35,528 nucleotides of DNA from Actinomycetota bacterium (GCA_009886115.1 VFJJ01000062.1:1-35528); one strand, 5' to 3'; counted from the first letter of the stretch, positions 5,374-20,056 are shown. Notes: generated from the sequence alone by a model not told the origin. A program made the numbers and translations.

Positions 5374-5406
5374 TCTGTACTTGTGCCGACTCGGCAACCC
5401 CGACCT

Positions 5407-5459
5407 CCCAAATTGGTGCGGAAATGCCCACGGGATGAGCATTTCCGCACCAATTTGGG
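5407..5459. repeat. Perfect 21-bp inverted repeat (REP-like palindrome or bidirectional terminator)
   Basis: cccaaattggtgcggaaatgc (5407-5427), 11-nt loop, gcatttccgcaccaatttggg (5439-5459); lies between convergent genes. Confidence 0.85.
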
Positions 5460-5546
5460 TGAGGACCTTGACCTTGACCTTGCCGAGCGCAGCGAGGTCC
5501 CGAATTCGCCGCCGACGTGCCGCAGGCACTTGGAGGCGGCACAAGA

Positions 5547-6461
5547 TCAGCCGTTCAGGAAGGCCTTCAGGGATGCGGCGAGCTCGAGGGGCATGTCGCC
5601 CTGGATGGAGTGGCCGGCCCCGTCGAACTTCTCGTAGCGGGTCTCGGGGCGACGGCGGAGGAACTCGGCGACGTCGGCGTCGTCGACCACCGGCGACAGC
5701 ATGCCCCGGGCCAGCACGATGGGCATCGGCAACGCCGAGACGAGCTCCCACAGGTTGCCCCAGGAGGGGAACTCGCGCACGGCGGGCTCGTCCTCGGAGC
5801 CGGTGAACGACCGGTCGTAGTTCCACGCCCACGAACCGTCGTCGAGCTGGTGGGCGTTGTGGAGGATGCCGCGCTTGAGCGACTCGACGGTGCGCGTCGG
5901 GTTGTGCTCGACGGTCCGGGCCAGGAGGTCGTCGTACGAGGCGAACGTCTGCGGGCCGCGGATGAAGTCGGCGACCGCCTTGCCCTTGGTGGCGTCGACG
6001 CCCGGCGTCACGTCGACCACGTACAGCTTGCGCACCAGATCGGGACGACCCGCCCCGAGCGCGATCGACGTGAGACCACCGAGCGACATCCCCACCAGCA
6101 TCTCGGCCTCGGGAGCGAGCACCTCGATGGCCCGCGTCACCTTGGTGGCGTTGCCGTGCGGCCAATACCGATGGTCGGGCCACCACGAGGAATGGCCGTG
6201 TCCCGGCAGGTCGATGCACACGACCGGCTCGCCCAGCGCCATCACCACGGTGTCCCACGTGTGGGCGTTCTGGGCGCCGCCGTGCAGGAACACGACGCGC
6301 GGCGGTCCCGTCCCCCAGACCAGCGCCGACAACGACAACTCCGGCTCGATCTCGACGGCCATCCGTCTGACCGTCGGCGGCGCGTCGTAGGGAAGGCCGT
6401 ACTCGTGGGCGTTCTCGTGAAAGAGCCCGAACTCGTCGTAGTCGATCCGCTCACTCGCCAT
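5547..6461 (-). CDS. Alpha/beta fold hydrolase
   Basis: VFLHGG oxyanion motif, DLPGHGHS, nucleophile GMSLG, C-terminal GAGH. Start MASERIDY is preceded by TACCTT-N7 (leaderless-type -10). Confidence 0.9.
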   Translation of the reverse strand: MASERIDYDEFGLFHENAHEYGLPYDAPPTVRRMAVEIEPELSLSALVWGTGPPRVVFLHGGAQNAHTWDTVVMALGEPVVCIDLPGHGHSSWWPDHRYWPHGNATKVTRAIEVLAPEAEMLVGMSLGGLTSIALGAGRPDLVRKLYVVDVTPGVDATKGKAVADFIRGPQTFASYDDLLARTVEHNPTRTVESLKRGILHNAHQLDDGSWAWNYDRSFTGSEDEPAVREFPSWGNLWELVSALPMPIVLARGMLSPVVDDADVAEFLRRRPETRYEKFDGAGHSIQGDMPLELAASLKAFLNG

Positions 6462-6468
6462 GGCCCGC

Positions 6469-6565
6469 AAGGTATCGCGCGTCGCACGAGAACGCCTGGA
6501 GGGCGACTGGACGCGCTCACCACCACGCCAACGCGGCCGAAGGTCGTCTCCTCGGCGCCTACCAT
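6469..6565. promoter_or_regulatory. Divergent leaderless-type -10 boxes
   Basis: Minus-strand TACCTT (6474-6469) 7 nt before ATG 6461; plus-strand TACCAT (6560-6565) 8 nt before GTG 6574; neither start has a Shine-Dalgarno sequence. Confidence 0.5.
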
Positions 6566-6573
6566 CGACACTC

Positions 6574-7302
6574 GTGAGCCTCGTGAACGACGACCGTGTG
6601 TACTTCCGCCAACTCCTCGCCGGGCGCGACATCGCCGCCGACAACCGGATGGCCCGCCAGATGGTCAACTTCGTGTACCTGATCGGCGATCGCGACACGG
6701 GCGAGTGCGTCGTGGTCGATCCGGCGTGGGGCCCGGCCGACATCGTCAACGTGGCCGCAGCCGACGGCATGCGCATCACCGGTGCCCTGGCCAGCCACTA
6801 CCACATGGACCACATCGGCGGATCCTTGATGGGCCAGGCGGTCGACGGGGTCAGGGAGCTCCTCGAGATCGTGGGCCTCAAGGTTCACTGCCATCGTGAC
6901 GAGTTGGAGTTCGTGCGCAAGACCACGGGCATCTCCGAATCCGACGTCGTGGCCCACGACAGCGGCGACACCGTGATGGTCGGGGCCATTCCCATCGAGC
7001 TGATCCACACGCCCGGGCACACCCCCGGGAGCCAGTGCTTCTTCGTCGCCGACTGCCTCGTCTCGGGCGACACCCTCTTCCTCGATGGCTGCGGACGCAC
7101 CGACTTCCCCGGGTCCGATCCCGAGGCCATGTACGACAGCCTCCACAACCGGTTGGCTCGCATCCCCGACGAGAGCATGCTCTTCCCCGGGCACTGGTAC
7201 GCCCCCGAGCCGGCCGCGCTCATGGGCGACACCCGCCGCTCCAACTACGTCCTCGCCCCCAGGAGCAAGGAGACCTGGCTCGCCATGTTCGGCTCCGGCT
7301 GA
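6574..7302 (+). CDS. MBL-fold metallo-hydrolase (glyoxalase II-like)
   Basis: SHYHMDH (HxHxDH), HTPGHTPGS, SGDTLF..GCGRTD, PGH. Start is GTG 6574 or 6583. Confidence 0.9.
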   Translation: MSLVNDDRVYFRQLLAGRDIAADNRMARQMVNFVYLIGDRDTGECVVVDPAWGPADIVNVAAADGMRITGALASHYHMDHIGGSLMGQAVDGVRELLEIVGLKVHCHRDELEFVRKTTGISESDVVAHDSGDTVMVGAIPIELIHTPGHTPGSQCFFVADCLVSGDTLFLDGCGRTDFPGSDPEAMYDSLHNRLARIPDESMLFPGHWYAPEPAALMGDTRRSNYVLAPRSKETWLAMFGSG

Positions 7303-7424
7303 CGCGGCGACCGGTTCGCTCGAGTCGTGTCTCCGGATTCGGCGGAATCGCCCGCCGAGACCTTGACCGCACCCCAACTGATCATGACCATGACCCGATC
7401 ACTTCCCCCGTCCTACGAGAGCCG

Positions 7425-10400
7425 ATGCGCGCGACCCTGATCGGAACCGAGTCCATCCTCGCGACGTGTGGTGAGCAGTTGCTCGAGCGCGGCCACGAGA
7501 TCGTTCGTGTCATCACCGACGACCCGGCCATCGCCGGCTGGGCCGCTGATCTCGGCTGCCCGGTTTCCGAGCTGGGTCCGGGGACCGCCGAGCAGATCAG
7601 GGCCGACGCCACCGACTGGTTGTTCAGCATCGGCAACCTCGAGATCCTGTCCGACGAGATCCTGGCCGCGCCGCGGATCGTCGCCGTCAACTTCCACGAC
7701 GCGCCACTGCCCCGATACGTGGGTGTCAACACGCCGGTCTGGGGGCTCCTCAACGACGAGACCGAGTGGGGCGTCAGCTTCCACGTCATGACCTCGGGCA
7801 TCGACGAGGGCCACGTGCTGGCCGAGACCCGCTTCGTCATCGCCGACGACGAGACGGCCTTCACGCTCAACGCCAGGTGCTATGAATCCGCGATCGGCGC
7901 CTTCGGACCGCTGATCGAGCGTCTGGCCCGCGGCGACATCGCCGGTTCGCCACAACCGCACACCGACGATCGCCTGGTGTACCGCCGGGCCGATCGTCCC
8001 GCGGCCGGCGCGGTGCTCGACTGGCGGCGCGACGCGTCGTCGATCGTCCGGCTCGTGCGGGCACTGCACTACGGCCATCGGGGCAACCCCGTCGGCCTCG
8101 CCAAGCTCCTCCTCCCGAACTCCGCCGGGCCCGGCAGCCCCGGTCGCCCCGGCAGCCCCGGCCGGGAGACGCCCGTCGTGGTGGTCAGGGCCCGGGTGCT
8201 CGACGAGCGTTCGAGCCTCGACCCCGGCACCGTGGTCGATGTCGGCGACGGTCGACTCGTCGTGGCGACGGGCACGACCGACGTCGAGATCGGCGAGCTC
8301 ACCTGCCTGCGTGGCGCACCCCTCGATCTGACCCGGACCGCCGAGGAGCACGGTCTCCGGCCCGGCACGAGGCTCCCGGTGCTCGACGACGAGCGAGCCG
8401 GCCAGTTGAGCACCCACCACGCCAGCATGGCCAAGGCCGAGCGCCACCACGTGCGCCGGCTCGCGGCGTTCGAGGCCGTCGATCTGCCCTACGCCCAACG
8501 CGGCGGCGGCGACGGCAGCCAGCCACTCGTCGACGGTGGATCAGTCGAGCTGCTCCCCGGCTTCGACGCCGACAGCGCGACCGCGCTCATCGCCCTGGTT
8601 CTGGCACGACTGTCGGGTCGGTCGTCCATCGACCTGGCCTACACCGGACCCGAGATCGACCGGGTCGTGGCGGCGGTGGCGCCGCTCGCCGAGCCCGTCG
8701 TCGCGGTTCGCGTCGACCTCGACCTCGATCGGCCGTGGTCCGAGAACACCGCGACGGTCACCCAAGCCCTCGCCGAGGCCCGACGCCGGGGCCCCTACGG
8801 CCGCGAGCTGGTCGCTCGTCACCCCGAGCTCGCCGCTGCCCCATCGCCCACCTCGATCGTGGTGCGCCACGGAGCGCCGACCGAGACTCCTGCGGCTGAC
8901 GGCGGCTCCCCGGTCGACGAGCTCTCCGGCGTCGAGCTCCTGTTCGACGTCGCAGCCGACGCTCACACGGTCACCGTGCACCACGACCCCTCGGCCTATC
9001 CCCGCGAGGCCGTGGCGCGGATCCGGGCCCATCTCGCCGAGCTGGCCCATCGGGCGGCCAGCGCCCCGGCCACAGCAGCCGGTGACCTCCCGCTGCTGAA
9101 CGACGCCGAGCTGCACCGCATCCTCGTCGAGTGGAACGACACCGCGGTGCACCACGAGCCGGTGTGCATCCACGAGCGGATCGCAACACAGGCCGCCCGC
9201 ACGCCCGACGCCACAGCCGTCGTCTGCGGGGCCATGCGCTACACCTACCGCGAGCTCGAGATGCGCGCCAACCACCTCGCCCATCGACTCCGCGACCTCG
9301 GGGTCACAGCCGGCTCGCTCGTCGGCCTCCATCTCGATCGGACGGCCGACCTGGTCGTGAGCGTGCTGGCCGTTCACAAGGCGGGCGGAGCGTATGTCCC
9401 GCTCGACCCCACCTATCCCGATGACCGGATCGCCTACATGGTGGCCCACTCCGGCTTGCGCGTGTTGTGCGTGCACGAGCGTCTGCTCGCTCACCTGCCG
9501 CCCCACGAGGCCACCGTGGTGGTCGTCGACCGAACCGAGCCGCTCGACGCCAACGACCCCGCAGCGGCGACCAGCACGAGCTCGCAGGCGCCCGACGTGA
9601 CCGTCGGCCCCGACGATCTCGCCTACGTGATCTACACCTCGGGCTCGACCGGAAAGCCCAAGGGGGTCATGGTCGAGCACCACAATCTGAGCAACTTCGT
9701 GCTCGCCATGGACCCCGTGGTGCCCCACGGTCCGACGGGTGACGGTCAGCCCGGCGTATGGCTTGCCGTCACCAGCTTGTCGTTCGACATCTCGATCCTG
9801 GAGTTGCTGTACACGTTGGCCCGCGGTTTCACGGTGGTCGTGCACCCGGACACGCCGGCCAAGGCCGCGCTCTCGCCGGCCGCCACCGTCGCCGCGACCG
9901 TGCCCGTCCACACCCGCAACGCCGATGCCCTCCACACCTCGCCGCGCCCGCTGCGCAGGCAACGTCTCGACTTCAGCCTCTTCTACTTCGCGGCCGACGA
10001 GTCGGAGCCCTCGGCACGCTCGAACCGCTACCGCCTGCTCATCGAGGGCGCCCGTTACGCCGACGCCAACGGGTTCACCGCGGTGTGGACCCCCGAGCGC
10101 CACTTCCATGCGTTCGGCGGCCTCTACCCGAACCCGGCAGTCACCGGTGCCGCGCTGGCGATGGTCACCGAGAACGTCGAGATCAGGGCTGGGAGCTGTG
10201 TGCTGCCCCTGCACTCGCCGATCCGGGTGGCCGAGGAGTGGTCGCTCGTCGACAACCTCTCGAACGGCCGCACGGGGCTCGCCATCGCCTCGGGCTGGCA
10301 CCCCAACGACTTCGTCTTCCAGCCGCAGAACTTCAGCGACGCCAAGGGCGTCATGGTCCGCAGCATCGAGACGTTGCGCAGGCTCTGGGCCGGCGAGAGC

Positions 10401-12440
10401 GTCACGTTCGATGGCCCCGACGGCCGTCCCGTCGAGGTGCACACGCTCCCCCGTCCGGTCAGGCCCGAGGTACCGCTGTGGATCACGACCGCGGGGAGCC
10501 CCGAGAGCTTCCGCCTCGCTGGCCGGATCGGATGCCACCTCCTCACCCACCTGCTGGGCCAGGACCTCGCCGAGCTCACGGCCAAGATCGCCATGTACCG
10601 CCAGGCGCGCCGAGAGGCCGGCCATCCGGGCGAGGGCCACGTGACCCTCATGCTGCACACGCTCGTGGGTGACGACGACGCGACCGTCAAGGAGGCCATC
10701 CACCGTCCGCTGGTCGAGTACCTCCGCTCCTCGACCAGCCTCGTGGCCGGGTTCGCCTGGGCCTTCCCCACGTTCAAGAACCGCCCCGGCGACGCCCGCG
10801 ACGACGATCTCTCGCACCTCGAGCCCGACGAGATCGAAGCGCTCCTCGAGTTCGCCTTCCAGCGATACTCCGAGGGCAGCGGGCTCTTCGGTACCCCCGA
10901 GTCGTGCCAGCCGCTGCTCGAGTCGCTCGTCGAGATGGGCGTCGACGAGATCGGCTGCCTCGTCGACTTCGGTGTCGACGAGGACGTCGTCCTCGCGAGC
11001 CTTCCCCGGCTCACCGAGCTCAAGGAGTGGGCGGCGCAGCGGTTCGGACCGGCACCCGAGGTCGCTGCCGCCGAGCCCGTCGTGCTCGGCGCGACGTCCG
11101 CGACGTCCACGACGTCCACGGCCGGCGCGACGTCCACGGCCGCCGGGGACGCCGCGACCCCGATCCCGATCCCCGACGACGAGACGATCGGCGAGGCCAT
11201 CGTCAACCACCGGGTCACCCACTTCCAGTGCACCCCGTCGCAGGCCCGCATGATCCTCTCCGACCCGGCCAACCACGACGCGCTGGCCCACCTGCACGTC
11301 TGGCTGATCGGCGGCGAGGCCTTCCCACCGGCGCTGGCCGCCGAGCTGGCCCAGGTGTGCCCGAGGACGCGCATCGTCAACGTGTACGGCCCCACCGAGA
11401 CCACGATCTGGTCGTCGTCGCACACCATCGCCGGTGCTCCGAGCACCGTGTTGATCGGCCGGCCCATCGCCAACACGAGTCTCTACGTCCTCGACGGGCG
11501 ACGACGACCGGTGCCGGTGGGCGTTCCCGGCGAGCTCTGGATCGGCGGCGAGGGCGTCACCGGCGGCTATCTGGGTCGCTCCGATCTCACCACCGAGCGT
11601 TTCGTACCCGACCCGTTCGTCGGCCCCGACGCCAACCCGCACCACGCCCGCATGTACTGCACGGGTGACGTCGCCCGCTGGTGGCCCGACGGCACCGTCG
11701 AATGCCTGGGCCGTACCGATCATCAGGTGAAGGTGCGCGGGTACCGCATCGAGCTCGGCGAGATCGAAGCGGTCCTGGCTGCCGACGACACCGTCCGCGA
11801 AGCCGTCGTCATCGCCCGCGAAGACATGCCGGGCGACGTGCGCCTCGTGGCGTACGTCGTCGTCGATCCCGATGCCGCCAAGAACGAGGTGACCACCTCG
11901 GCCGGTTCCACCACCGTCGTCACGCACCTGCGCGAGCGGTGCCGGGCCCAGCTGCCCGACTACATGGTCCCGGCGCACGTGGTCGTGCTGGCCCGCTTCC
12001 CGCAGACGCCCAACGGCAAGATCGACCGTCTGGCTCTACCCGCGCCGACGAGCGCTGCTGCCCGACCGGCCGGGGCGCCGCCCGACCGGGCCCGAACGGC
12101 GCTCGACGCGGGCTCCAGCCTCGAATCGCAGATCTCCACGCTCTGGTCCGAGACACTGGGGCTCGACCACGTCGACGTCACCGACAACTTCTTCGACCTG
12201 GGCGGGCATTCGATGCTGGCGGTCAGGGTCCACCGCCGATTGCGCGACGAGCTCGGCTTCCCCCTGTCGCTCACCGACTTGTTCCGGTTCCCCACTGTCA
12301 GGCAGTTGGCGGGGTTCCTGGGCGCTGCCGATGACGGCGGGGACGCCGACGCCAAGCCCGCCGCGGTGAACGCCGCCCAGGCCCGGGGGGAGGCTCGCCG
12401 CCTGGCCCGGCAACGGATCAAGGTCGGCGGCGACCGCTGA
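7425..12440 (+). CDS. NRPS: formyltransferase - degenerate C-like region - adenylation domain interrupted by a luciferase-like monooxygenase (MupA/Atu3671-type) - PCP
   Basis: Formyltransferase NFHDAPLPRY and GIDEG; A motifs YTYREL, KAGGAYVPLD, YTSGSTGKPKG, FDIS, then LLM (FSLFYF, WTPERHF, GLYPNP, EEWSLVDNLSNGR, SGWHPNDF), then NVYGPTETT, GELWIGG, TGD, KVRGYRIELGEIE, NGKIDR; PCP FFDLGGHS. ATG 7425 chosen because the 7035 start overlaps the MBL gene. Confidence 0.92.
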   Translation: MRATLIGTESILATCGEQLLERGHEIVRVITDDPAIAGWAADLGCPVSELGPGTAEQIRADATDWLFSIGNLEILSDEILAAPRIVAVNFHDAPLPRYVGVNTPVWGLLNDETEWGVSFHVMTSGIDEGHVLAETRFVIADDETAFTLNARCYESAIGAFGPLIERLARGDIAGSPQPHTDDRLVYRRADRPAAGAVLDWRRDASSIVRLVRALHYGHRGNPVGLAKLLLPNSAGPGSPGRPGSPGRETPVVVVRARVLDERSSLDPGTVVDVGDGRLVVATGTTDVEIGELTCLRGAPLDLTRTAEEHGLRPGTRLPVLDDERAGQLSTHHASMAKAERHHVRRLAAFEAVDLPYAQRGGGDGSQPLVDGGSVELLPGFDADSATALIALVLARLSGRSSIDLAYTGPEIDRVVAAVAPLAEPVVAVRVDLDLDRPWSENTATVTQALAEARRRGPYGRELVARHPELAAAPSPTSIVVRHGAPTETPAADGGSPVDELSGVELLFDVAADAHTVTVHHDPSAYPREAVARIRAHLAELAHRAASAPATAAGDLPLLNDAELHRILVEWNDTAVHHEPVCIHERIATQAARTPDATAVVCGAMRYTYRELEMRANHLAHRLRDLGVTAGSLVGLHLDRTADLVVSVLAVHKAGGAYVPLDPTYPDDRIAYMVAHSGLRVLCVHERLLAHLPPHEATVVVVDRTEPLDANDPAAATSTSSQAPDVTVGPDDLAYVIYTSGSTGKPKGVMVEHHNLSNFVLAMDPVVPHGPTGDGQPGVWLAVTSLSFDISILELLYTLARGFTVVVHPDTPAKAALSPAATVAATVPVHTRNADALHTSPRPLRRQRLDFSLFYFAADESEPSARSNRYRLLIEGARYADANGFTAVWTPERHFHAFGGLYPNPAVTGAALAMVTENVEIRAGSCVLPLHSPIRVAEEWSLVDNLSNGRTGLAIASGWHPNDFVFQPQNFSDAKGVMVRSIETLRRLWAGESVTFDGPDGRPVEVHTLPRPVRPEVPLWITTAGSPESFRLAGRIGCHLLTHLLGQDLAELTAKIAMYRQARREAGHPGEGHVTLMLHTLVGDDDATVKEAIHRPLVEYLRSSTSLVAGFAWAFPTFKNRPGDARDDDLSHLEPDEIEALLEFAFQRYSEGSGLFGTPESCQPLLESLVEMGVDEIGCLVDFGVDEDVVLASLPRLTELKEWAAQRFGPAPEVAAAEPVVLGATSATSTTSTAGATSTAAGDAATPIPIPDDETIGEAIVNHRVTHFQCTPSQARMILSDPANHDALAHLHVWLIGGEAFPPALAAELAQVCPRTRIVNVYGPTETTIWSSSHTIAGAPSTVLIGRPIANTSLYVLDGRRRPVPVGVPGELWIGGEGVTGGYLGRSDLTTERFVPDPFVGPDANPHHARMYCTGDVARWWPDGTVECLGRTDHQVKVRGYRIELGEIEAVLAADDTVREAVVIAREDMPGDVRLVAYVVVDPDAAKNEVTTSAGSTTVVTHLRERCRAQLPDYMVPAHVVVLARFPQTPNGKIDRLALPAPTSAAARPAGAPPDRARTALDAGSSLESQISTLWSETLGLDHVDVTDNFFDLGGHSMLAVRVHRRLRDELGFPLSLTDLFRFPTVRQLAGFLGAADDGGDADAKPAAVNAAQARGEARRLARQRIKVGGDR

Positions 12441-15400
12441 TGGGCTCGAACGGCGCGGCCGACGACTACAGCGGGTCCGAGATCGCCATCGTCGGCATGG
12501 CGGGACGGTTTCCCGGCGCGCCCGATGTCGACACGCTCTGGGATCTCGCGGCGTCGGGTCGGGTCGGCATGCGTCGATTCAGCGATCGGGAGTTGCTCGA
12601 CGCCGGCGTACCCCTGGCGACACTGCGCGATCCCGACTATGTCAAGGTCAACGGGACCATCGACACGCTCGAGTGGTTCGACGCCGGCTTCTTCGGGATC
12701 GGGCCCCGCGACGCGGCGATCATGGATCCCCAACACCGCCACTTCCTCGAAGCGGCGTGGGAGGTGCTCGAGCACGCCGGCCATCCGCCGTCGAGATTCG
12801 ACGGGCCCATCGGGGTGTTCGCGGGCTGCGGCATGAACGGGTACTTCACCTGGAACCTGCTCACCAACCCCGCGCTCGTCGAGTCGGTCGGCCTGTTCCT
12901 GTTGCGCCACACCAGCAACGACCGCGACTTCCTCGCCACCCAGGTCGCGTATCAGCTCAACCTGACCGGACCGGCGATCTCGGTGCAGACGGCGTGCAGC
13001 ACGTCGCTCGTGGCGGTCCACCTGGCGACGCAGAGCCTGCTCAGCCGGGAGTGCGACATGGCCCTGGCCGGTGGGGTCACCTACGAGATCCCGCATCGCC
13101 AGGGATACCTCTACCACGACGGCGAGATTCTCTCACCCGACGGTGTCTGCCGGGCCTTCGACCATCGCTCGGCCGGCACCGTGCTCACGAGCGGTCTCGG
13201 CGTCGTGGCGTTGCGCCGCTACGACGACGCTGTTGCCGATGGCGACGTGATCCACGCCGTCATCCGAGGAACCGCCGTGAACAACGACGGGTCCCGCAAG
13301 GTCGGGTTCCTCGCGCCGAGTGTCGACGGTCATGCCGCCGTCGTCGTCGAGGCCCTCGCGGTGGCCGGCGTCGACCCCGACACCATCACCTACCTCGAGG
13401 CCCACGGCACGGGCACCAGCGTCGGAGATCCGATCGAGGTGGCCGCGCTCACGCAGGCCTTCCGTACCGCGACGAGCCGTAGCGCCTTCTGCCACTTGGG
13501 ATCGACGAAGCCGAGCATCGGGCACCTCGACACCGCAGCGGGCGTCGCCAGTCTCATCAAGACCACGAAAGCCTTGCAGCACAAAGTGCTCCCGCCGCTC
13601 GCCAACTTCGAGGCACCCAACCCCATCATCGACTTCGATGCGACGCCCTTCGTCGTGAGCAACGAAGCCCGGCCTTGGAACGTCACGCCGGGTACGCCGA
13701 GACGGGCCGGTGTCAGCTCACTCGGTGTGGGTGGAACCAACGTCCACGCCGTGCTCGAGGAAGCCCCGCTCCGGCCGGCCACGACGCCGGCGGGGCGCGA
13801 CTGGCAACTCCTCGTCGTCTCGGGTCGGACCGAGACCGCGGCCCGGGCCTACGGGGTTGCGCTCGCGCGGCATCTCGCTCGCAGCATCGCCGGCAGGGTC
13901 GACGCGTCCGAGACCTCGGCTGAGCCGACCCCGGCTGACGATGCCGCCCTCGGTGAGCTGGCCGACGTCGCCTACACGATGCAGGTCGGGCGTGAGGCCT
14001 TCGCGTGGCGCCGTGCCGTCGCCGTCAGGTCCGCGGCCGATGCCCTCGCGGTGCTCAGCGACGATCCCGGCGCGTCCGCGGCACACGTCGGCATGCGGCG
14101 TACGGTCGTCGGCACCGCAGCCGCCGGTTCGAGCTCCCCACCCGTGGTGTTCATGTTCCCCGGGGGAGGAGCCCAGTACCCGGGGATGGGTCGTGACCTC
14201 TACGATGCGGAGCCGGTCTTCCGGCGCCACGTCGACGAGTGCCTGACCCTGCTCGAACCCTTGCTGGCCATGGCTCCCGTCGGTCGCGAGCTGCCGTTCG
14301 CCGACCTGCGGGCCTTGATGTACCCGGCCCCCGGGACCGAGGACGAGGCGGCAGTCCACCTCGAGCGGGCCACGGCTTCGTTGCCTGCGGTCTGGGTCAC
14401 GTCGTACGCCATGGCCCAGCTGTGGATGTCGTGGGGCGTCGAGCCCGCGGCCATGACCGGTCACTCCCTCGGCGAGTACGTCGCAGCGTGCATCGCCGGA
14501 GTGCTCAGCCTGCCCGACGCGCTGTCGATCGTGATGTTGCGGGCCCGACTCTTCGAGCAGGTCTCCCACGGCGGAGGGATGCTCTCGGTCCCCCTGGCCG
14601 TCGACGAGGTCCGGCCCCTCCTGCCCGATGTCTTGTCGATCGCCGCGGTGAACTCGCCGACGCAGACCGTCGTCTCGGGTCGCGCCCACGACCTCGCCGC
14701 CTTCGAGCAGGTCCTGCTCGAGAAAGAGGTCGAGGCCCGTCGGGTCAACCTGGCCATCGCCCCGCACTCGGCCATGCTCGACGAGGTGCTCCCGGCCTTT
14801 CGCGACGGGCTGCGCCGGATCACCTTCCACCGCCCCGTCCGCCGGTTCATCTCCAACCTCACCGGCACGTGGATCACCGACGAGGATGCCGTCGATCCCG
14901 AATACTGGGTGAGGCACCTGCGGCGAACCGTGCGGTTCTCCGATGGTCTCGCCGAGTTGTGCACCGATGCCTCGCTCGTGTTCCTCGAGGTCGGTCCGGG
15001 GCAGGCGTTGGGCTCGTTCGTGCGCCAGCAGCCCAGCCGACCGTCGGCCGTGCTCGCCTCCCTGCGCCACGTCGACGACGACACGGCCGATCTCCAGTAC
15101 ACCCTCACGACCTTGGGGCGCTTGTGGACGGCCGGGGTGGAGATCGACTGGAACGCTCATCACCACGGCCCTCGCCGGCGGGTCGCGCTGCCGACCTACC
15201 CCTGGGAGCGGCAGCGGTACTGGATCGATCCCGGCGTCGGGCGATCCGGCGTCGCCAACCCCGGTGACCCGCTGACCCGGATCCCGACGATCGACGGATG
15301 GTGGAGCCAGCTCGAGTGGCGTGCGGCACCCGCGCCTCGAATCGGTGCCACCGAGCCCACCTCGTGGCTGGTCCTCGCCGATGGCGATCCGCTGATCGAG

Positions 15401-18400
15401 CGCACCATGGTCGCGCTCCGGGCGGCGGGGCACCGAGTGATCGAGGTGCGCCCGGGTGAGCGCTTCGAGCGCAGCGAGAACGGCCACTCCCTCGCCGGTC
15501 TCGCGACCTCCTTCGTGTTGCCGCCAGCCGATCGGGCCGGATGGTCGCAGCTGCTTGCGGCGCTCACCGACGAGGGCGGGTTGCCCCGCCACGTGCTCCA
15601 CTCGTGGCTGATGCACGATCGGCGCGACGCCGACTCGGCGCAGGCCCGCGGCTTGCACACGCTGATCGCCATGGCCCAGGCCTTCGTCGACGACGACGTG
15701 ACCGCACCGGTCGAGCTGATCGTCCTGACCGCAGGCATGCAGCAGGTGGCTGCTGAACCGCTTCGCCATCCCGAGCACGCCACGGTGCTGGGCGCCTGCC
15801 GGGTCATCCCCCGCGAGCAACCCAACGTCGCGTGCCGCAGCATCGACGTCGAGGCGACGACCACCGTCGAGGCGCTCATCACCGAGCTGACCCAAGGCGG
15901 CACTGGTCCTGCAGGCGTCACCTCGTCCGGCGCGACCTCACAAGCGGTGGCGTACCGGGGTGCGAGCCGCTTCGCGCAGGAGATCGCCGTCGTCGCCGGT
16001 CCTCGGCTGGTCACCGACCCGGCGGCCGTGGCGGGGGCCGCGGGCTCGCTCCACACAGCCACGGGGGCGGTCCGACCCGGCGGTACCTATCTCATCACCG
16101 GCGGATACGGCGGTCTCGGTCTCGTGGTGGCCGAGCACCTCGCCCGCACCGCCAACGCCAACGTCGTGCTCGTCGGCCGTCATCCGCGTCCGACACCGGG
16201 GCTCGAAGCGGCCCGGGCCGAGGTGCTGAAGGTCGCAGCCGACGTCACCGACGTCGACGCGCTGCGGCGTGTTGTGGCCGAAACCCATCGACGCTTCGGA
16301 CCCATCCACGGTGTCTTCCACGCCGCCGGCGTGCTTGACGACGGCCTCCTGCCCTCCAAGACCATCGCCGGCGTCGACGCCGTGCTCGCCCCCAAGGTCG
16401 CTGGGACGCTGGCGCTCGACGATGCGCTGCGCGACGAGCCGCTCGAGTTCATGGTCCTCTTCTCGTCGACCTCGGCGCTGCTCGGTCTCCCCGGCCAGGT
16501 CGACTACGCCGCAGCGAACGCGTTCGTCGACGCCTACGCCGCACATCGGCGGGGCTCCGACCGCCCAGGCTCGACGGTCGCGATCGCCTGGGGGGCTTGG
16601 CGTGACAGGGGAATGACCGCCCGCGGCGATGCCGACCCGGCTGACGCGCTCGGCCTCGGCGATCGTCTCGAGCCTCCCGAGCCGCTCAGCCACGCCGTGC
16701 TCGACCGATGGGCCGCTGTCTCAGCCGAGCGCGTGATCTCCGAGGGCCACCTCGACGCGGCCAGTGACTGGATCGTCGCCGAGCATCGCCTCAAGGCCGG
16801 TCGGTGCGTCCTTCCCGGCATGGCGGCCATCGACCTCATCGCAACCGCAGCCCGCGAGACCCTTCCGCTGCACGGTTCGATCGAGATCCGCGACCTCTCG
16901 TTCGTACGCCCCCTCGAGGTCCCCGACGACGAGCCCACCGGGATCAGGGTCGATCTCCGGGCCGATGAGCCGGGGGCGTGGTCGGCCGCGATCGAGAGCC
17001 GGCCCGAACAGCCCGGACGGCCCACCGTGTGGCGCCGTCACGCCGGGGCGACCGTGATGGTGGCGTCCGGCCCCGGGTCCGGCGACCCGTCCGGCGACCC
17101 GACCGAAGGGGAGTCGCAGGCCAACGGAGATCGGCCCCGCCTCGATCTCGACGCGATCGGCAACCGGCTCCATCAAGCAGCTCGCAGCTACGACGCCCAG
17201 TACCCGCACGACCGCCAGAGTCGCCACCTCGACTTCGGACCCCGCTGGGACAACCTGGTCTCGGCCCGGGCCAGCGAGTCGGAGGTGCTGGCCGAGCTCC
17301 AGCTCCCGTCAGCGTTCGAGGGCGACATCGGCCCCTGGTCCCTCCACCCGGCGCTGCTCGACCGGGCGGTCGGCATCGGGTTGGGCCTCATCGACGGTTT
17401 CCGCGATCGCGACGACCTCTACGTTCCCTTCGAGGTGAGGCGGGCCGTTGTCCACGGCCCGGTGCCCAGCCGCGTGTGGTGCCTCGTGAGGCTCACTCGG
17501 CCCACGACGGCCACCGACGCCGTGGCGACCTTCGACGTGACCCTCGCCGAGCCCGACGGTCGTGTCTGTGTGGTCATGGAGCGGCTCTCCATGCGGCGGC
17601 TCGAGAACGTGCAGGCGATGGCTGTCACCGGTCGCAGGGCGGCCGTCGCCGACATGGGCCCGGCCGGGTTCCCCGACCACGCTGGTCATGGACAGGAGCG
17701 AGCGGCGCTGGGAGGCGGTTCCGACGGCGCCGGTCCCCGGGCCATGGGCCACGTGATGGCCGACGGGATCACGGCCGAGGAAGGCCTGGCGTGCCTCGAC
17801 CGGCTGCTCGGCGCCATGGCCGGTCCGGGTGGTCCGGGTGGTCCGGGTGGTGCGGGTGGTCCGGGTGATCCGAATGGCAGCAGCATCGCCTCGCACCTGA
17901 TCTGCTCACCGTTCGATCTCGTGGCGCTCGAGCGCGCCGCGCTGCCCACCGCCCCGGCGGGCGGCGGCGACGGAGCGGGAAGGGTCGAGCGGCCCGAGCT
18001 GGGAGCCACCTTCACCGGACCGAGAGACGACGTCGAGCGCGAGCTCGTCGACGTCTGGCAGGAGATCCTCGGCATTGCCGGGGTCGGCATCCACGACGAC
18101 TTCTTCGACCTGGGCGGGCATTCCCTCATCGCTGTTCGGCTGTTCTCCAAGATTCGCAAGGCCTGGGCGGTCGACCTCGGCCTCTCGACCCTCTTCAACG
18201 CGCCCACGGTCGCCGAGCTGGCAACGCTCGTTCGCGAGGAGCGCGATCTCCCCGAGCCCCCGCCGTCACCCACGATCCCGACTGCGGCCGTGACCGCTCC
18301 CGCTCCCGTCGAGGGCACGGCGATCGTCCCGGCTGCAGGCGACGCCGGGACCGGAGGAGGGGGCTCGTCGCCCTCGGGCGCACCGGCTTCTTCTTCTGCT

Positions 18401-19360
18401 GCTGCTGCTGCACCCACGACCGCACCCGATTCCGATGCGGCGAGCGGGCAGGCGGCTCGGGGCCGGCCCCGGCGATCGTCGTTCAGCTGCCTCGTACCCA
18501 TCCAGCGACGCGGCGGGTTGCGGCCGGTGTACATCGTGCACGGCCGCACCGGTCACGTGATGAACTTCCAGCCGCTGGCACTGCGCATGGCGCCCGACCG
18601 CCCGGTCTTCGGCATCCAGGCCCATGGTCTCGACGGCCGGAGCGAACCCGACCGCACCATCGAGGCCATGGCCCGCCGCTACGTGAGCGCCGTTCGCGAG
18701 GCCCAGCCCGTCGGGCCGTACATCCTCGGCGGCTTCTCGGGTGGGGGCGTGGTCGCGTTCGAGATGGCTCATCAGCTCACCGCTGACGGCGAGACGGTCG
18801 CTCCGCTCGTCCTGCTCGACACGATCCGCCCCGGGCTCCAGCAGGAGGTGCGATGGGACTACGTCCGCTACCGCGCCAAGGAGATCAGCCGCGACCCCGT
18901 CCAAGCCCGGCAGTGGGTCAAGGCGACTGCCCGACTCGTGCGCGACCGTCTCAGCCCCGGGGAGACCCCCGTACGACGCCGCTCGTCGTTCGGCCCACCC
19001 GACGAGCGGATCGGCGACGGCGCTGCGAGCACGAGCGTCGACGCCGACAACGTGCTCGAGCTGACCGACATCTACCTCCGGGCCCAGGACGACTACACGA
19101 TGCGCCGCTGGGACGGGCGCGCCGTGCTGTTCCGGGCCAGTCGATCGCTCGCCGAGGAGATGGGCTCGTTCCAGGTACCTGCCGACCTCCTGTGGTCGCC
19201 GTTCGTCGAGCACCTCGACATCTTCCAGATCCCGGGCGGTCACACCGACATGATGTTGCCGCCCAACGTCGACGTGCTCGCCGAGCGCCTCCGTCTGGTG
19301 CTGAGTGCCGAGTCCGAGACCGAGACCGAGACCGAGGCTGGGTCCCCGGAAACCCGGTGA
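12440..19360 (+). CDS. Type I PKS: KS-AT-KR/DH-carrier-TE
   Basis: KS VQTACSTS, EAHGTGT, IGHLDTAAG; AT GHSLG; KR GGYGGLG, HAAGVLDD, YAAAN; DH HRLKAGRCVLPG, HPALLD; carrier FFDLGGHSL; TE GFSGG and GGHTDM. TGATG overlap with the NRPS stop. Confidence 0.95.
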   Translation: MGSNGAADDYSGSEIAIVGMAGRFPGAPDVDTLWDLAASGRVGMRRFSDRELLDAGVPLATLRDPDYVKVNGTIDTLEWFDAGFFGIGPRDAAIMDPQHRHFLEAAWEVLEHAGHPPSRFDGPIGVFAGCGMNGYFTWNLLTNPALVESVGLFLLRHTSNDRDFLATQVAYQLNLTGPAISVQTACSTSLVAVHLATQSLLSRECDMALAGGVTYEIPHRQGYLYHDGEILSPDGVCRAFDHRSAGTVLTSGLGVVALRRYDDAVADGDVIHAVIRGTAVNNDGSRKVGFLAPSVDGHAAVVVEALAVAGVDPDTITYLEAHGTGTSVGDPIEVAALTQAFRTATSRSAFCHLGSTKPSIGHLDTAAGVASLIKTTKALQHKVLPPLANFEAPNPIIDFDATPFVVSNEARPWNVTPGTPRRAGVSSLGVGGTNVHAVLEEAPLRPATTPAGRDWQLLVVSGRTETAARAYGVALARHLARSIAGRVDASETSAEPTPADDAALGELADVAYTMQVGREAFAWRRAVAVRSAADALAVLSDDPGASAAHVGMRRTVVGTAAAGSSSPPVVFMFPGGGAQYPGMGRDLYDAEPVFRRHVDECLTLLEPLLAMAPVGRELPFADLRALMYPAPGTEDEAAVHLERATASLPAVWVTSYAMAQLWMSWGVEPAAMTGHSLGEYVAACIAGVLSLPDALSIVMLRARLFEQVSHGGGMLSVPLAVDEVRPLLPDVLSIAAVNSPTQTVVSGRAHDLAAFEQVLLEKEVEARRVNLAIAPHSAMLDEVLPAFRDGLRRITFHRPVRRFISNLTGTWITDEDAVDPEYWVRHLRRTVRFSDGLAELCTDASLVFLEVGPGQALGSFVRQQPSRPSAVLASLRHVDDDTADLQYTLTTLGRLWTAGVEIDWNAHHHGPRRRVALPTYPWERQRYWIDPGVGRSGVANPGDPLTRIPTIDGWWSQLEWRAAPAPRIGATEPTSWLVLADGDPLIERTMVALRAAGHRVIEVRPGERFERSENGHSLAGLATSFVLPPADRAGWSQLLAALTDEGGLPRHVLHSWLMHDRRDADSAQARGLHTLIAMAQAFVDDDVTAPVELIVLTAGMQQVAAEPLRHPEHATVLGACRVIPREQPNVACRSIDVEATTTVEALITELTQGGTGPAGVTSSGATSQAVAYRGASRFAQEIAVVAGPRLVTDPAAVAGAAGSLHTATGAVRPGGTYLITGGYGGLGLVVAEHLARTANANVVLVGRHPRPTPGLEAARAEVLKVAADVTDVDALRRVVAETHRRFGPIHGVFHAAGVLDDGLLPSKTIAGVDAVLAPKVAGTLALDDALRDEPLEFMVLFSSTSALLGLPGQVDYAAANAFVDAYAAHRRGSDRPGSTVAIAWGAWRDRGMTARGDADPADALGLGDRLEPPEPLSHAVLDRWAAVSAERVISEGHLDAASDWIVAEHRLKAGRCVLPGMAAIDLIATAARETLPLHGSIEIRDLSFVRPLEVPDDEPTGIRVDLRADEPGAWSAAIESRPEQPGRPTVWRRHAGATVMVASGPGSGDPSGDPTEGESQANGDRPRLDLDAIGNRLHQAARSYDAQYPHDRQSRHLDFGPRWDNLVSARASESEVLAELQLPSAFEGDIGPWSLHPALLDRAVGIGLGLIDGFRDRDDLYVPFEVRRAVVHGPVPSRVWCLVRLTRPTTATDAVATFDVTLAEPDGRVCVVMERLSMRRLENVQAMAVTGRRAAVADMGPAGFPDHAGHGQERAALGGGSDGAGPRAMGHVMADGITAEEGLACLDRLLGAMAGPGGPGGPGGAGGPGDPNGSSIASHLICSPFDLVALERAALPTAPAGGGDGAGRVERPELGATFTGPRDDVERELVDVWQEILGIAGVGIHDDFFDLGGHSLIAVRLFSKIRKAWAVDLGLSTLFNAPTVAELATLVREERDLPEPPPSPTIPTAAVTAPAPVEGTAIVPAAGDAGTGGGGSSPSGAPASSSAAAAAPTTAPDSDAASGQAARGRPRRSSFSCLVPIQRRGGLRPVYIVHGRTGHVMNFQPLALRMAPDRPVFGIQAHGLDGRSEPDRTIEAMARRYVSAVREAQPVGPYILGGFSGGGVVAFEMAHQLTADGETVAPLVLLDTIRPGLQQEVRWDYVRYRAKEISRDPVQARQWVKATARLVRDRLSPGETPVRRRSSFGPPDERIGDGAASTSVDADNVLELTDIYLRAQDDYTMRRWDGRAVLFRASRSLAEEMGSFQVPADLLWSPFVEHLDIFQIPGGHTDMMLPPNVDVLAERLRLVLSAESETETETEAGSPETR
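17822..17866 (+). repeat. 9-bp in-frame repeats ggtccgggt (GPG)n in a PKS linker
   Basis: ggtccgggt repeated about 5 times with one variant unit (ggtgcgggt). Confidence 0.75.
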
Positions 19361-20019
19361 GAGCGGCGTTCGAGAACCTGCTGGGTACCAGGGTGATCGT
19401 TGAGAGCGACCACCCTGGAGACGAGAGCGCCCCGCTCTCGGACGCCGAGACCGCGCTCGTGGCCCGGGCCGTGGATTCGCGCCGCCGCGAGTTCCGCGTC
19501 GGGAGGGCCTGTGCCCACAGGGCATTGGCCCGGCTCGGGATCGCCGGTCACACGATCGGCGCGCACCCCGAGCGTGATCCCGTGTGGCCCGACGGCATCG
19601 TGGGCTCGATCACCCACACGGTCGACTGCGGCGGGCGCCTGCGCTGTGTGGCTGCGGTCGCCCCGACCAGGGTCGCGGCCGGGATCGGGATCGACGCCGA
19701 GCCCTCCACCCCGCTCGACGACGACCTCATGGCGCTGGTCTGCCGTCCCGGCGAGGTGGCCTCGGGCGACCGCGATGCGGCCAAGGTGGTGTTCTGTGTC
19801 AAGGAGGCGCTGTACAAGGCGATCTTCCCGCTGACCCGCCGGTTCCTCGAGTTCTCCGATGTGTCGACCACGGTGTCGTTGGCCGACGGCACGTTCACGG
19901 CCCGGGCCGTCACCGGCGCGGGTGGCCCGAGGTTCCCCGAGGGCCGTAGCGTCCACGGCGGTGTCGTGGTGCTCGACGGGCTCGTGCTGGCGTCGCTGCG
20001 TCTGCCGCCCGGCTTCTGA
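19357..20019 (+). CDS. 4'-phosphopantetheinyl transferase (EntD-like)
   Basis: RRREFRVGRACA, PVWPDGIVGSITHT, IGIDAE, FCVKEALYKA; GTGA overlap with the PKS stop. Confidence 0.92.
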   Translation: MRAAFENLLGTRVIVESDHPGDESAPLSDAETALVARAVDSRRREFRVGRACAHRALARLGIAGHTIGAHPERDPVWPDGIVGSITHTVDCGGRLRCVAAVAPTRVAAGIGIDAEPSTPLDDDLMALVCRPGEVASGDRDAAKVVFCVKEALYKAIFPLTRRFLEFSDVSTTVSLADGTFTARAVTGAGGPRFPEGRSVHGGVVVLDGLVLASLRLPPGF

Positions 20020-20056
20020 GCCTCCCCACCCCACCCCTCCTCCGCGACTGGGATCG

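Follow-up and report, generated by a model that had tools for sequence, protein, structure and literature searches.

Three adjoining genes in the 35,528-nucleotide stretch of DNA analyzed here (GCA_009886115.1 VFJJ01000062.1, from an Actinomycetota bacterium; hereinafter the window) code for a nonribosomal peptide synthetase (NRPS) loading module, a type I polyketide synthase (PKS) and a 4′-phosphopantetheinyl transferase (PPTase), raising the question of what such a compact assembly line makes and whether it constitutes a system of its own. The original prediction regarded it as a candidate for an undescribed system, self-contained and of no known product. We posit, with a probability of roughly 55%, that the three genes form a functional operon which belongs, as a divergent representative from an actinobacterium, to a widespread orphan NRPS–PKS–PPTase family and acts by the pathway proposed below. 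The features on which the argument draws are, in order of position:

6460..7302, + strand: MBL-fold hydrolase, 122 nt upstream of the cassette on the same strand (PF00753); possible link to the cassette
7425..12440, + strand: NRPS loading module, 1671 aa, comprising F, C-lobe remnant, putatively Gly-type A domain split by LLM, and PCP (Pfam, TIGR04020, alignment A1)
7425..8336, + strand: formyltransferase (F) domain, N and C subdomains, aa 1-304 (PF00551, PF02911)
8337..9182, + strand: condensation (C) domain remnant, C-terminal lobe only, no HHxxxDG, aa ~305-586 (profile in relatives, AlphaFold, Foldseek)
9183..9905, + strand: adenylation (A) domain, N-terminal part, through motif A4 (SLSFDIS) (Pfam AMP-binding, aa 587-827)
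9972..11024, + strand: luciferase-like FMN monooxygenase (LLM, MOx) between A4 and A5 (PF00296, TIGR04020, PDB PuwE 6ket)
11163..12044, + strand: A domain, C-terminal part, A5 (NVYGPTE) to A10 (AMP-binding second stretch, AMP-binding_C)
12129..12320, + strand: PCP (GGHS, Ser1596) (PF00550)
12440..19360, + strand: type I PKS, 2306 aa, KS-AT-psiKR/KR-DH-ACP-TE (Pfam, alignment A2)
12479..13876, + strand: KS (PF00109, PF02801, PF16197)
14147..15136, + strand: AT (GHSLGE; IAPHS) (PF00698)
15296..16606, + strand: KR with structural subdomain, LDD-type motif (NF047870, PF21394, PF08659)
16721..17614, + strand: DH, downstream of KR (PF21089, PF14765)
18041..18232, + strand: ACP (GGHSL, Ser1895) (PF00550)
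18524..19357, + strand: TE (Ser2100, Asp2127, His2268) (PF00975)
19357..20019, + strand: Sfp/PptT-type PPTase (PF17837, PF01648)
20057-20887 and ~20950-21849, + strand: two tandem double-hotdog thioesterase genes directly 3′ of the PPTase (Pfam 4HBT, frame plot)

Gene layout and genomic context

The three ORFs (7035/7425-12440, 12440-19360 and 19357-20019, all on the + strand) are joined by stop/start overlaps, TGATG at 12438-12442 and GTGA at 19357-19360, just as had been predicted, and are free of frameshifts and internal stops. For the first of them 7425 is favored as the start, the alignments with relatives beginning at residue 1-5 of the resulting protein. Pfam bears out the predicted domain order, save that the condensation C-terminal lobe in gene 1 (aa ~305-586) had been overlooked. 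The catalytic motifs, which had been described as intact, can indeed be so regarded since the catalytic residues are invariant across 12-sequence alignments, with TE Ser2100 as the sole exception.

A scan of positions 5400-22500 for promoters and terminators returned 0 sites of each, and an Rfam search returned 0 matches. In a metatranscriptome (run X8), contigs 99-100% identical to the window lie on the MBL gene, the NRPS gene, the NRPS/PKS junction (12041-12487) and a phosphatase gene; as the contigs from this RNA library cover 29 of 30 bins and genes on both strands, with DNA carry-over being possible, they are no proof of transcription.

Around the cassette, four genes considered as possible further members of the cluster, those for the MBL hydrolase, an alpha/beta hydrolase, an LMW phosphatase and an SDR, are conserved only in the close relative L001, a sister species, and in 0 of 40 other related loci. 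The NCBIfam models for solanimycin proteins match here below their cutoffs: SolG with 481 bits against 2200, and SolJ, in the upstream MBL gene, with 81 against 350, the similarity of that gene to GloB being equally weak and below cutoff. The two hotdog thioesterases lie outside the conserved cassette; they are missing at the matching place in the sister species, on which ground we rejected them as release factors, and nothing closely homologous is found in genome G001, where the best E is 6e-10. No glycosyltransferase, exporter or other glycan gene turned up among the ORFs scanned on the 35.5-kb contig, in agreement with the prediction that neither a glycosyltransferase nor an exporter lies nearby, and the 95.6%-complete genome has no PF03808 match, i.e., no WecG/TagA-family glycosyltransferase. 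A cyclodehydratase or another oxazole-forming partner is not indicated by any Pfam family detected on the contig. Among 41 genomes of the same order, the cassette is confined to one genus.

Domains of the loading module and the synthase

In gene 1, Pfam recovers Formyl_trans_N/C (aa 52-304), AMP-binding (587-827, covering profile positions 2-264 of 384), Bac_luciferase (850-1175), AMP-binding_C (1446-1532) and PP-binding (1569-1632). The Asn-His-Asp catalytic residues of the F domain (N89, H91 and D127) are invariant in 12/12 sequences of alignment A1 and align with the motifs of the LgrA F domain (N-x-H...D). Among PDB structures, the ArnA formyltransferase domain matches it best (77.5 bits, E 9.4e-21, aa 19-215); other matches include the Met-tRNA formyltransferase (FMT, 60 bits) and GDP-perosamine N-formyltransferase, with LgrA F scoring lower (~32 bits).

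Pfam returned no match for the following segment (aa ~305-586) in the window protein. In relatives, the stretch just ahead of the A domain matches positions 395-456 of the 456 in the Condensation profile, and an AlphaFold model of aa 300-590 (pLDDT 89.6) retrieves NRPS C domains as its best Foldseek matches (E 7.8e-13), aligning in VIA-align with their residues ~172-441 at Z 17-19. Only E40 and R166 of this lobe are invariant in alignment A4. We take the retained lobe to be the acceptor-side lobe of the C domain.

The monooxygenase is inserted into the A domain between SLSFDIS and NVYGPTE; it scores 497 bits against NCBIfam TIGR04020 (cutoff 244, aa 850-1200) and matches the PuwE monooxygenase structure (PDB 6ket) with E 8.7e-102. 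For the C-terminal part of the A domain, the best PDB stretch is LgrA module 2 (247 bits). The specificity code, read from alignment A1, is D-I-L-Q-L-G-V-I-W-K, and D788, I789, L792, Q1268, G1296, I1328, W1329 and K1532 are invariant in 12/12 sequences, as are G1593, G1594, H1595 and S1596 of the PCP. This code presumably corresponds to that for glycine, and on that footing the A domain is putatively Gly-type.

In gene 2, Pfam delineates KS (14-391), AT (570-899), KR (1215-1389), DH (1428-1725), PP-binding (1868-1931) and Thioesterase (2029-2135) domains, an order (KS-AT-KR-DH-ACP-TE) kept in 12/12 aligned PKSs. Alignment A2 reveals as invariant C186, H322 and H362 of the KS (12/12), G674, H675, S676, R701 and H776 of the AT, G1221, G1224, D1301, K1319, S1343, Y1356 and N1360 of the KR, H1449, P1459 and D1641 of the DH, S1895 of the ACP, and D2127 and H2268 of the TE, whose S2100 is shared by at least 90% of the rows. 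The domain order is established, the catalytic residues are intact, and the specificity code of gene 1 is conserved family-wide. The AT matches the FabD model TIGR00128 (E 3.4e-37) and, going by its motifs, is probably malonyl-specific; the KR, likewise going by its motif, is presumably LDD-type. The PDB matches listed for aa 950-1800 include domains of modular and trans-AT PKSs, MAS and FAS. A PUFA-synthase- or enediyne-like origin of the KR-then-DH arrangement was rejected, as no such synthase is among the best 60 of these matches, and a paper on PUFA-type hybrids contains no mention of formyl, luciferase or glycine (PMC13291983). The PPTase matches the Pfam models 4PPT_N (80.6 bits, cutoff 27) and ACPS (35.7, cutoff 25), as well as the PptT and Npt models below their cutoffs.

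With the sister species as the reference, dN/dS is 0.194 for the NRPS (1651 codons), 0.175 for the PKS (2263 codons) and 0.38 for the PPTase, which is 81% identical between the two. No domain reaches 0.4: constraint is strongest on the LLM (0.07), with KR at 0.08 and KS at 0.09, and among the catalytic domains of the two synthases it is weakest on F (0.35). Every domain is under purifying selection. In an independent metagenome strain (run X4), which spans the whole locus, every indel inside a gene (6 nt at 11159 and 9 nt at 17852) keeps the reading frame.

Family distribution and comparable systems

About 96 of the best 120 matches in a search of 5.8 billion proteins display the F-A(LLM)-PCP architecture over 1549-1672 aa, the relatives being found in Alphaproteobacteria (Shinella, Parasedimentitalea), other Actinomycetota and many metagenomes. 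Across 41 independent related loci, the fusion of F, C-lobe, A and PCP is present in all 41, the same PKS adjoins it in 26 and a PPTase is present in 20; the NRPS-then-PKS order seen here recurs in 12 of the 26 loci with an adjoining PKS. The KS-AT-KR-DH-ACP-TE PKS family is common in Rhodobacterales, Hyphomicrobiales and Sphingomonadales, and gene 2 shares 38-44% identity with 10 PKSs taken from related loci outside its genus. A FastTree tree places the NRPS of the window and of its sister species beside other Actinomycetota NRPS–PKS pairs with an SH-like value of 89, which is not strong; on this grouping we rejected the derivation of the NRPS from a PKS-less exosortase-type branch newly joined to a PKS.

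The loci of the relatives lie mostly among glycosyltransferase and polysaccharide-export genes, with flippases and sugar-phosphate transferases also alongside, and their neighboring genes include those for GT2, DegT aminotransferase and epimerase/dehydratase proteins. This confirms the statement in the original prediction that pairs of F-A-LLM-PCP and PKS genes occur beside glycosyltransferase genes in Alphaproteobacteria, and renders its term "self-contained" doubtful because most relatives' genes sit within glycan-assembly loci. Nor is the system rare or undescribed: the cassette belongs, as a divergent member, to a large, multi-phylum family that is already in print as a Roseobacter cluster. 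Collins et al. 2015, citing Martens et al., describe this NRPS/PKS/glycosyltransferase/PPTase cluster as conserved, with an uncharacterised product, and as present in 28/57 Roseobacter genomes (PMC4337385). The same three core proteins, F-A(LLM)-PCP NRPS, single-module PKS and PPTase, are encoded here. The F-A(LLM)-PCP proteins of Parasedimentitalea marina (plasmid pW43C) and Shinella zoogloeoides align with ours end to end (40-42% identity, 97% coverage), and in both the NRPS adjoins a type I PKS of ~2170 aa, accompanied in Shinella by a PPTase. In contrast, the order here is NRPS-PKS-PPTase rather than the PKS-GT2-NRPS-PPTase of the Roseobacter-type cluster, no glycan gene lies on the contig, the host is an actinomycete and the identities are only about 40-49%. 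A hybrid cluster on a Paracoccus plasmid is given without a "most similar known" entry in PMC8273931; the Paracoccus plasmid matches to the NRPS are without the F domain, and that cluster was therefore left out of the comparison. The literature search found no product, substrate or activity for any family member, and nothing on Atu3671 or on the combination of formyltransferase, luciferase-like monooxygenase, adenylation domain and polyketide synthase; in the literature searched, the claim that no product has been characterised holds.

Precedents for individual parts are at hand. Monooxygenase domains within Gly-activating A domains alpha-hydroxylate glycine, according to PMC11342130, PMC9396620 and PMC10204066; in MtaG and MelG (myxothiazol and melithiazol; C-A(MOx)-PCP-TE) the hydroxylation is followed by carbinolamide cleavage to yield a glyoxylyl thioester (PMC10204066 and PMC11342130). 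Likened to them by these descriptions, the present module has a flavin monooxygenase at A4/A5 of a putatively Gly-type A domain, with alpha-hydroxylation of an N-acylglycyl thioester as the expected chemistry. However, it initiates where theirs is terminal, its N-acyl group is putatively a formyl from the fused formyltransferase, only the C-terminal lobe stands in place of a full upstream C domain, which would donate a peptidyl/acyl chain, and after the PCP comes a separate PKS instead of a TE that hydrolyses glyoxylate. SolF from the solanimycin pathway of Dickeya solani likewise carries a flavin monooxygenase, embedded in a Gly module, and its alpha-hydroxyglycine is kept and extended, as in solanimycin B; yet its insertion site is other than A4/A5 and it is an internal elongation module (PMC10204066).

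The N-terminal fusion of a formyltransferase to an A-PCP loading module resembles LgrA (linear gramicidin, F-A-PCP). Formyl-Gly loading of the OzmO type in oxazolomycin reportedly also involves a formyltransferase and an A-PCP loading module. Unlike LgrA F, the F domain here retains an FMT-type C subdomain and is closer to ArnA and FMT (77 and 60 bits) than to LgrA (32), and a C-lobe remnant of ~280 aa lies between F and A, which are directly joined in the LgrA-type module. The oxazolomycin analogy is weak, given that ArnA outscores LgrA F as a match to the F domain. ArnA, whose N-terminal domain (a UDP-Ara4N formyltransferase) is the best solved-structure match, differs in turn in that its formyltransferase is fused to a UDP-GlcA decarboxylase, that of the window to an NRPS module, and no sugar-nucleotide genes are found on this contig.

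Proposed pathway and its alternatives

Under the reading we prefer, the PPTase would prime the PCP and the ACP, and the A domain would load glycine onto the PCP. The resulting glycyl-S-PCP would be N-formylated by the N-terminal formyltransferase, seated on the leftover acceptor-side C-domain lobe, and the FMN monooxygenase at A4/A5 would hydroxylate the glycyl alpha-carbon by analogy with MtaG, MelG and SolF. The starter would be taken up by the KS and undergo one extension with malonate from the AT, following which the LDD-type KR and the DH would generate an (E)-2-enoyl thioester, e.g., 4-formamido-4-hydroxybut-2-enoyl-S-ACP, and the TE would release the product, the identity of which we infer from these steps; the 4-formamido-butenoate-like unit named in the original prediction is putative in the same way. 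The unit released is probably destined, in most relatives, for a polyprenyl-linked glycan or exopolysaccharide; since the present genome yielded no glycan partner, a free acid or another acceptor is to be expected here.

Speaking against this pathway, an alpha-hydroxy-N-formylglycyl intermediate could lose formamide, as described for MtaG/MelG with the same A4/A5 site. The monooxygenase would then trigger C–N cleavage, turning N-formyl-alpha-hydroxyglycyl-S-PCP into a glyoxylyl-S-PCP starter and leading to a 4-oxobut-2-enoyl (fumaraldehydoyl) unit, with formylation serving only to make glycine acceptable to the hydroxylase. We regard such cleavage as a tentative possibility: the LLM sits at A4/A5 as in MtaG/MelG, where carbinolamide cleavage leaves a glyoxylyl thioester (PMC10204066 and PMC11342130), and is the most constrained domain (dN/dS 0.07) with F much less so (0.35), whereas solanimycin B retains its alpha-hydroxyglycine and chain growth continues past it (PMC10204066). 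The placement of KR before DH with no ER also counts against the preferred pathway, being compatible with an iterative PKS too, which would extend the glycine-derived starter into a longer polyene or unsaturated acyl chain for relatives' glycosyltransferases to decorate as a lipid- or glycolipid-like product. The single module, with KR then DH, no ER or MT, and a TE, in an order kept in 12/12 aligned PKSs, would allow for this, and the glycosyltransferases, flippases and sugar-phosphate transferases constantly alongside in relatives would fit a glycolipid. Nevertheless, among solved structures the KR-DH region best matches modular PKS, trans-AT PKS and MAS domains, and no chain-length factor or ER partner was seen; we consider iteration unlikely.

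The higher score of the F domain against ArnA (77.5 bits) than against LgrA F (~32 bits), together with its dN/dS of 0.35, is a further point against the preferred reading. Alternatively, F might act on an amino-sugar nucleotide like ArnA while the A(MOx)-PCP and the PKS make a separate acyl group, a scenario for which the presence of both FMT-type subdomains, the lower rank of LgrA among PDB matches than that of ArnA, Met-tRNA formyltransferase and GDP-perosamine N-formyltransferase, and the GT2, DegT aminotransferase and epimerase/dehydratase genes in the neighborhood of relatives can be adduced. We consider it quite improbable, given that F, C-lobe, A and PCP are fused in 41/41 related loci whatever their neighbors, that the F fusion is here under purifying selection without sugar genes on the contig, and that the retained lobe, presumably acceptor-side, fits the delivery of a PCP-bound amine. 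That the locus is a decaying, no longer productive remnant of a horizontally acquired glycan-modification cluster might be suggested by its occurrence in just one genus across the 41 genomes of the order, the lack of glycan genes on the contig and that of a WecG/TagA-family glycosyltransferase in the genome. This is very hard to reconcile with the absence of frameshifts and internal stops, the retained catalytic residues (TE Ser2100 in at least 90% of rows), a dN/dS of 0.18-0.19 between two species and strain variants that within genes are in-frame indels only.

Beyond the preferred pathway itself, we offer the speculative and, at present, doubtful proposal that the family makes a new building block, an enoyl unit primed by N-formyl-alpha-hydroxyglycine or glyoxylyl, for surface glycans across phyla. 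In this genus it would have become uncoupled, releasing free reactive 4-formamido-4-hydroxy- or 4-oxo-butenoate, with F docking the carrier via the leftover C-domain acceptor lobe. Use of this lobe as a carrier-protein dock would, if true, be a new way to build an NRPS starter module. The family is very common, yet we found no report of its chemistry. Expression would be simplest with the compact three-gene version, which has no glycan genes and would show what the core product is; that product would then account for what marine Roseobacters, rhizobia and myxobacteria put on their surfaces through the glycan-linked versions. The starter module, with its formyltransferase, half C domain and split A domain, is unusual and of interest for NRPS enzymology.

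Architecture and conservation of the cassette

The window makes up a complete contig (C157; 35,528 bases) of a 5.45 Mb genome in 224 contigs, which is 95.6% complete and has about 70% G+C. Positions 7425-20019 are occupied by three co-directional ORFs with the following Pfam domains:

7425-12440, +, gene 1 (NRPS): Formyl_trans_N/C, AMP-binding, Bac_luciferase, the rest of AMP-binding with AMP-binding_C, PP-binding
12440-19360, +, gene 2 (PKS): KS, AT, KR (with its structural subdomain), DH, PP-binding, Thioesterase
19357-20019, +, gene 3 (PPTase): 4PPT_N and ACPS

Genes 1 and 2 share bases between the stop codon of the former and the ATG of the latter (TGATG, 12438-12442), and gene 3 begins at a GTG that runs into the stop codon of gene 2 (GTGA, 19357-19360). 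The AMP-binding domain of gene 1 is interrupted after position 264 of the 384 in the Pfam profile, with Bac_luciferase (the luciferase-like monooxygenase, LLM) lying in the break. Thus, the three overlapping genes and their domains are as the original prediction had described them. A longer reading of gene 1 from a GTG at 7035 was dropped in favor of the start at 7425, because the alignments of the relatives begin at residues 1-5 of the latter. At its C-terminus, 3′ of the PCP, the NRPS has an Arg-rich tail (12321-12437; consensus DRA..RR.A..RR) that is found family-wide, including in members lacking a PKS, and may be a docking element.

The first reading of the sequence missed a further domain in gene 1. 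Residues ~305-586 have no Pfam match; however, in three relatives the end of the Condensation profile (its final 50-60 positions) aligns directly before the A domain. A structure model of residues 300-590, built from 22 sequences (pLDDT 89.6, pTM 0.84), recovered NRPS condensation domains as its best matches in a Foldseek search (E 7.8e-13), and VIA-align superimposed it on C domains over 200-225 residues at ~3 Å (Z 17-19). The matched ranges (TycC 265-522, EntF 175-441, RzmA 172-431) cover the C-terminal lobe only; in the alignment, the HHxxxDG motif is absent from this region, where only two columns are invariant. Based on the model, we identify the region as the C-terminal lobe of a condensation domain; thus, the module reads F, half C domain, A(N), LLM, A(C), PCP. 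The retained lobe is presumably the one to which the acceptor carrier docks in complete C domains and, speculatively, it may present glycyl-S-PCP to the formyltransferase.

We aligned 12 NRPSs, namely those of the window, its sister species, Shinella, Parasedimentitalea and two other Actinomycetota along with six database proteins. Invariant among these are N89, H91 and D127 of the formyltransferase, the A-domain specificity positions D788, I789, L792, Q1268, G1296, I1328, W1329 and K1532, and the PCP serine S1596. Across 12 PKSs, the same holds for C186, H322 and H362 of the KS, G674-H675-S676, R701 and H776 of the AT, G1221, G1224, K1319, S1343, Y1356 and N1360 of the KR with D1301 of its LDD-type motif, H1449, P1459 and D1641 of the DH, S1895 of the ACP, and D2127 and H2268 of the TE, whose S2100 occurs in 90% or more of the rows. 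Compared with the sister-species locus (L001; 85-88% identity), the NRPS has a dN/dS of 0.194 (1651 codons) and the PKS one of 0.175 (2263 codons); the domain values are 0.07 for the LLM, 0.08 for KR, 0.09 for KS, 0.10 for AT, 0.13 for TE, 0.14 for DH, 0.35 for F and 0.38 for the PPTase. We conclude that the cassette is genuine and intact and that it is under selection.

Contigs from a DNA sequencing run of another study (X4) span 5400-22500, and all their indels inside genes are in-frame. The related strain sampled there differs by a deletion of 6 nt at 11159, between LLM and A5, and an insertion of 9 nt at 17852, between DH and ACP, both of which fall in the least conserved linkers. One metatranscriptome run yielded near-identical contigs on the locus, including one across the NRPS/PKS junction (12041-12487); since such libraries may contain DNA and genes on either strand are covered, these are no proof of transcription.

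Distribution and relationship to the Roseobacter cluster

Within the host order, two of the 41 genomes give a full-length match: that of the window and another from its genus. Among 301 sampled Actinomycetota genomes, the N-terminal 858 residues are matched at E ≤ 1e-60 in three: G000 and two of another family. In both of the latter, a KS-AT-KR-DH-ACP-TE PKS directly follows the NRPS; nearby in one genome are genes for a glycosyltransferase (WecG/TagA), two sugar-phosphate transferases (Bac_transf), a GT4 and an FkbH-like protein, and in the other for a DegT aminotransferase and a GT47-like protein. According to a FastTree phylogeny of 47 NRPSs, the window and its sister species group beside other Actinomycetota pairs on a long branch (SH-like 89).

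Judged from sequence matches, the NRPS architecture is very common outside the phylum. By our count, about 98 of the best 120 matches (42-47% identity; Burkholderiales, Myxococcota, Planctomycetota and others) combine PF00551, PF00296, PF00501 and PF00550, 96 of these being 1549-1672 residues long; NCBI labels such matches 'MupA/Atu3671 family FMN-dependent luciferase-like monooxygenase'. Among the matches listed, the PKS architecture is frequent in Rhodobacterales, Hyphomicrobiales and Sphingomonadales (29-38% identity over KR-DH-ACP-TE). NRPS and PKS are seen side by side or close together in two annotated plasmid records. A Shinella zoogloeoides plasmid codes for the PKS and NRPS, a PPTase, WecB/TagA and GT2 glycosyltransferases, a polyprenyl glycosylphosphotransferase and a flippase, while pW43C of Parasedimentitalea marina has PKS, GT2, NRPS, several glycosyltransferases and a CpsD-type kinase.

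Related loci were gathered from genomes, from plasmids and from a metagenome scan; this single scan, run with the alignment of 12 NRPSs, retained 80 of 633 confirmed stretches. Individual domain segments of the window proteins then served as tblastn queries against the pooled loci. After leaving out five loci that duplicate the window, the sister-species genome (G001) or parts of L092 and L094, 41 independent loci had both an F domain and an LLM. A PKS lies in the available flank of 26: 12 have NRPS then PKS as in the window, in 12 the PKS precedes the NRPS on the same strand (mostly PKS-GT2-NRPS-PPTase), and two are divergent; two loci beyond these 26, L116 and L121, have a PKS fragment at a contig end. 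Among the 15 without a PKS match, ~10 kb were available on both sides only for L003 and L146, the others being shorter on at least one side. By tblastn, a PPTase is present in 20 of the 41 loci (Pfam adds L103) and a glycan gene in 21. L107 has NRPS, PKS and PPTase in the window's order, followed by a GT2.

Pfam scans of neighbors at 12 loci, using 58 of 78 candidate ORFs (20 overlapping big genes or each other were dropped), found glycan-assembly families in seven (L100, L107, L119, L125, L132, L151, L146) and none among the ORFs scanned at L101, L103, L139, L112 and L128. L146, a PKS-less metagenome contig, is an exosortase-style PEP-CTERM/sigma-54/Wzz-type exopolysaccharide locus with sigma-54 regulators, a TPR protein, Poly_export, Wzz/GNVR, a PEP-CTERM protein and an epimerase. 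In Sandaracinaceae loci lacking a PKS, a Poly_export/SLBB gene lies upstream of the F-A(LLM)-PCP gene. Downstream lies a conserved ~695-residue protein with no Pfam match (L003:14755-16839; L002:6989-9022), a candidate for removing the product from the carrier.

Among described systems, the nearest is the conserved Roseobacter NRPS/PKS/glycosyltransferase/PPTase cluster, reported in 28 of 57 genomes with a product 'not yet characterized' (PMC4337385); in a 2023 genome paper it still features as no more than an antiSMASH hit (PMC10608839). The window has three of its four defining genes but not the glycosyltransferase, and is therefore a divergent member without the glycan context rather than a new system. 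The original interpretation holds in part: the intactness of the cassette was upheld, its standing as an isolated undescribed system was not. Our literature search, which had most subscription journals outside its reach, found no product name for the cluster family. The main interest of the cassette is as the most compact version of this widespread family without a known product, and in its unusual starter module.

Predicted chemistry

From the domain set, residue conservation, and published and database evidence, we infer a possible sequence of steps. Glycine would be loaded onto the PCP: together with L1294 and V1320 of the window, the invariant specificity positions give its A domain the code D-I-L-Q-L-G-V-I-W-K, which fits the glycine code and presumably specifies this amino acid. 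The strongest PDB stretch for the C-terminal A-domain half is LgrA module 2 (247 bits). The fused formyltransferase would then N-formylate the glycine, providing an N-acyl substrate for the hydroxylase. A role for this domain on an amino sugar, as in ArnA, seems very improbable to us, even with a score of 77.5 bits against ArnA and ~32 bits against the LgrA F domain.

The N-formylglycyl unit would next be α-hydroxylated by the LLM, which passes TIGR04020 (497 bits; cutoff 244) and has a structural match in the monooxygenase of PuwE (E 8.7e-102). According to published work, monooxygenase domains within glycine-activating A domains hydroxylate the glycyl α-carbon; in MtaG and MelG, where the insertion between a4 and a5 is at the same site as in the window, the carbinolamide breaks into an amide and a glyoxylyl thioester, and in solanimycin B the α-hydroxyglycine is kept and extended (PMC11342130, PMC9396620, PMC10204066). 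A comparable loss of formamide here, leaving a glyoxylyl starter, is in our estimate unlikely.

In the reading we favor, the KS would take over the hydroxylated N-formylglycyl starter for extension by malonate. The AT motifs are GHSLGE, R701 and a FabD-like APHS, from which specificity for malonate is presumed. Iterative use of the PKS strikes us as distinctly doubtful; in a single round, the LDD-type KR would reduce and the DH dehydrate the extended unit to an (E)-enoyl thioester, for release by the TE. The (E) geometry is presumed from the stereochemical rule for LDD-type KRs.

Genomic neighborhood

No glycosyltransferase, flippase, sugar-phosphate transferase or exporter was found on the window contig, and PF03808 (WecG/TagA) has no match in the 95.6% complete genome, the same search being positive in 7 of 14 control genomes. 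The contig codes for a NIT-HAMP sensor kinase, a thioredoxin-NHL protein, an α/β hydrolase, an LMW phosphatase and an SDR, along with:

122 nt upstream of the cassette, same strand: MBL-fold hydrolase
20057-20887 and ~20950-21849, +: two tandem double-hotdog (4HBT) thioesterase genes, with almost no gap after the PPTase
22377-24017, -: SDR ORF, 546 residues from the first start
23578-35527, +: two consecutive Liv-type ABC uptake systems

The hotdog genes, 33% identical to one another, have no counterpart at the matching site in the sister species, the sequences diverging directly past a common intergenic stretch. The other neighbors are common only to this close relative and, therefore, none can be assigned to the cassette. 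The SDR ORF overlaps the end of the LMW phosphatase gene by 4 nt; its true start is probably later than the first one, since the ORF scanned in the sister species has 365 residues and the SDR fold here does not set in until about residue 245. In the Liv systems, the three substrate-binding proteins have low-complexity N-terminal extensions of ~100 residues, the two permeases are apparently fused (773 and 763 residues, two BPD_transp_2 stretches apiece), and so is the ATPase ORF at 27460-29034, with two ABC_tran stretches.
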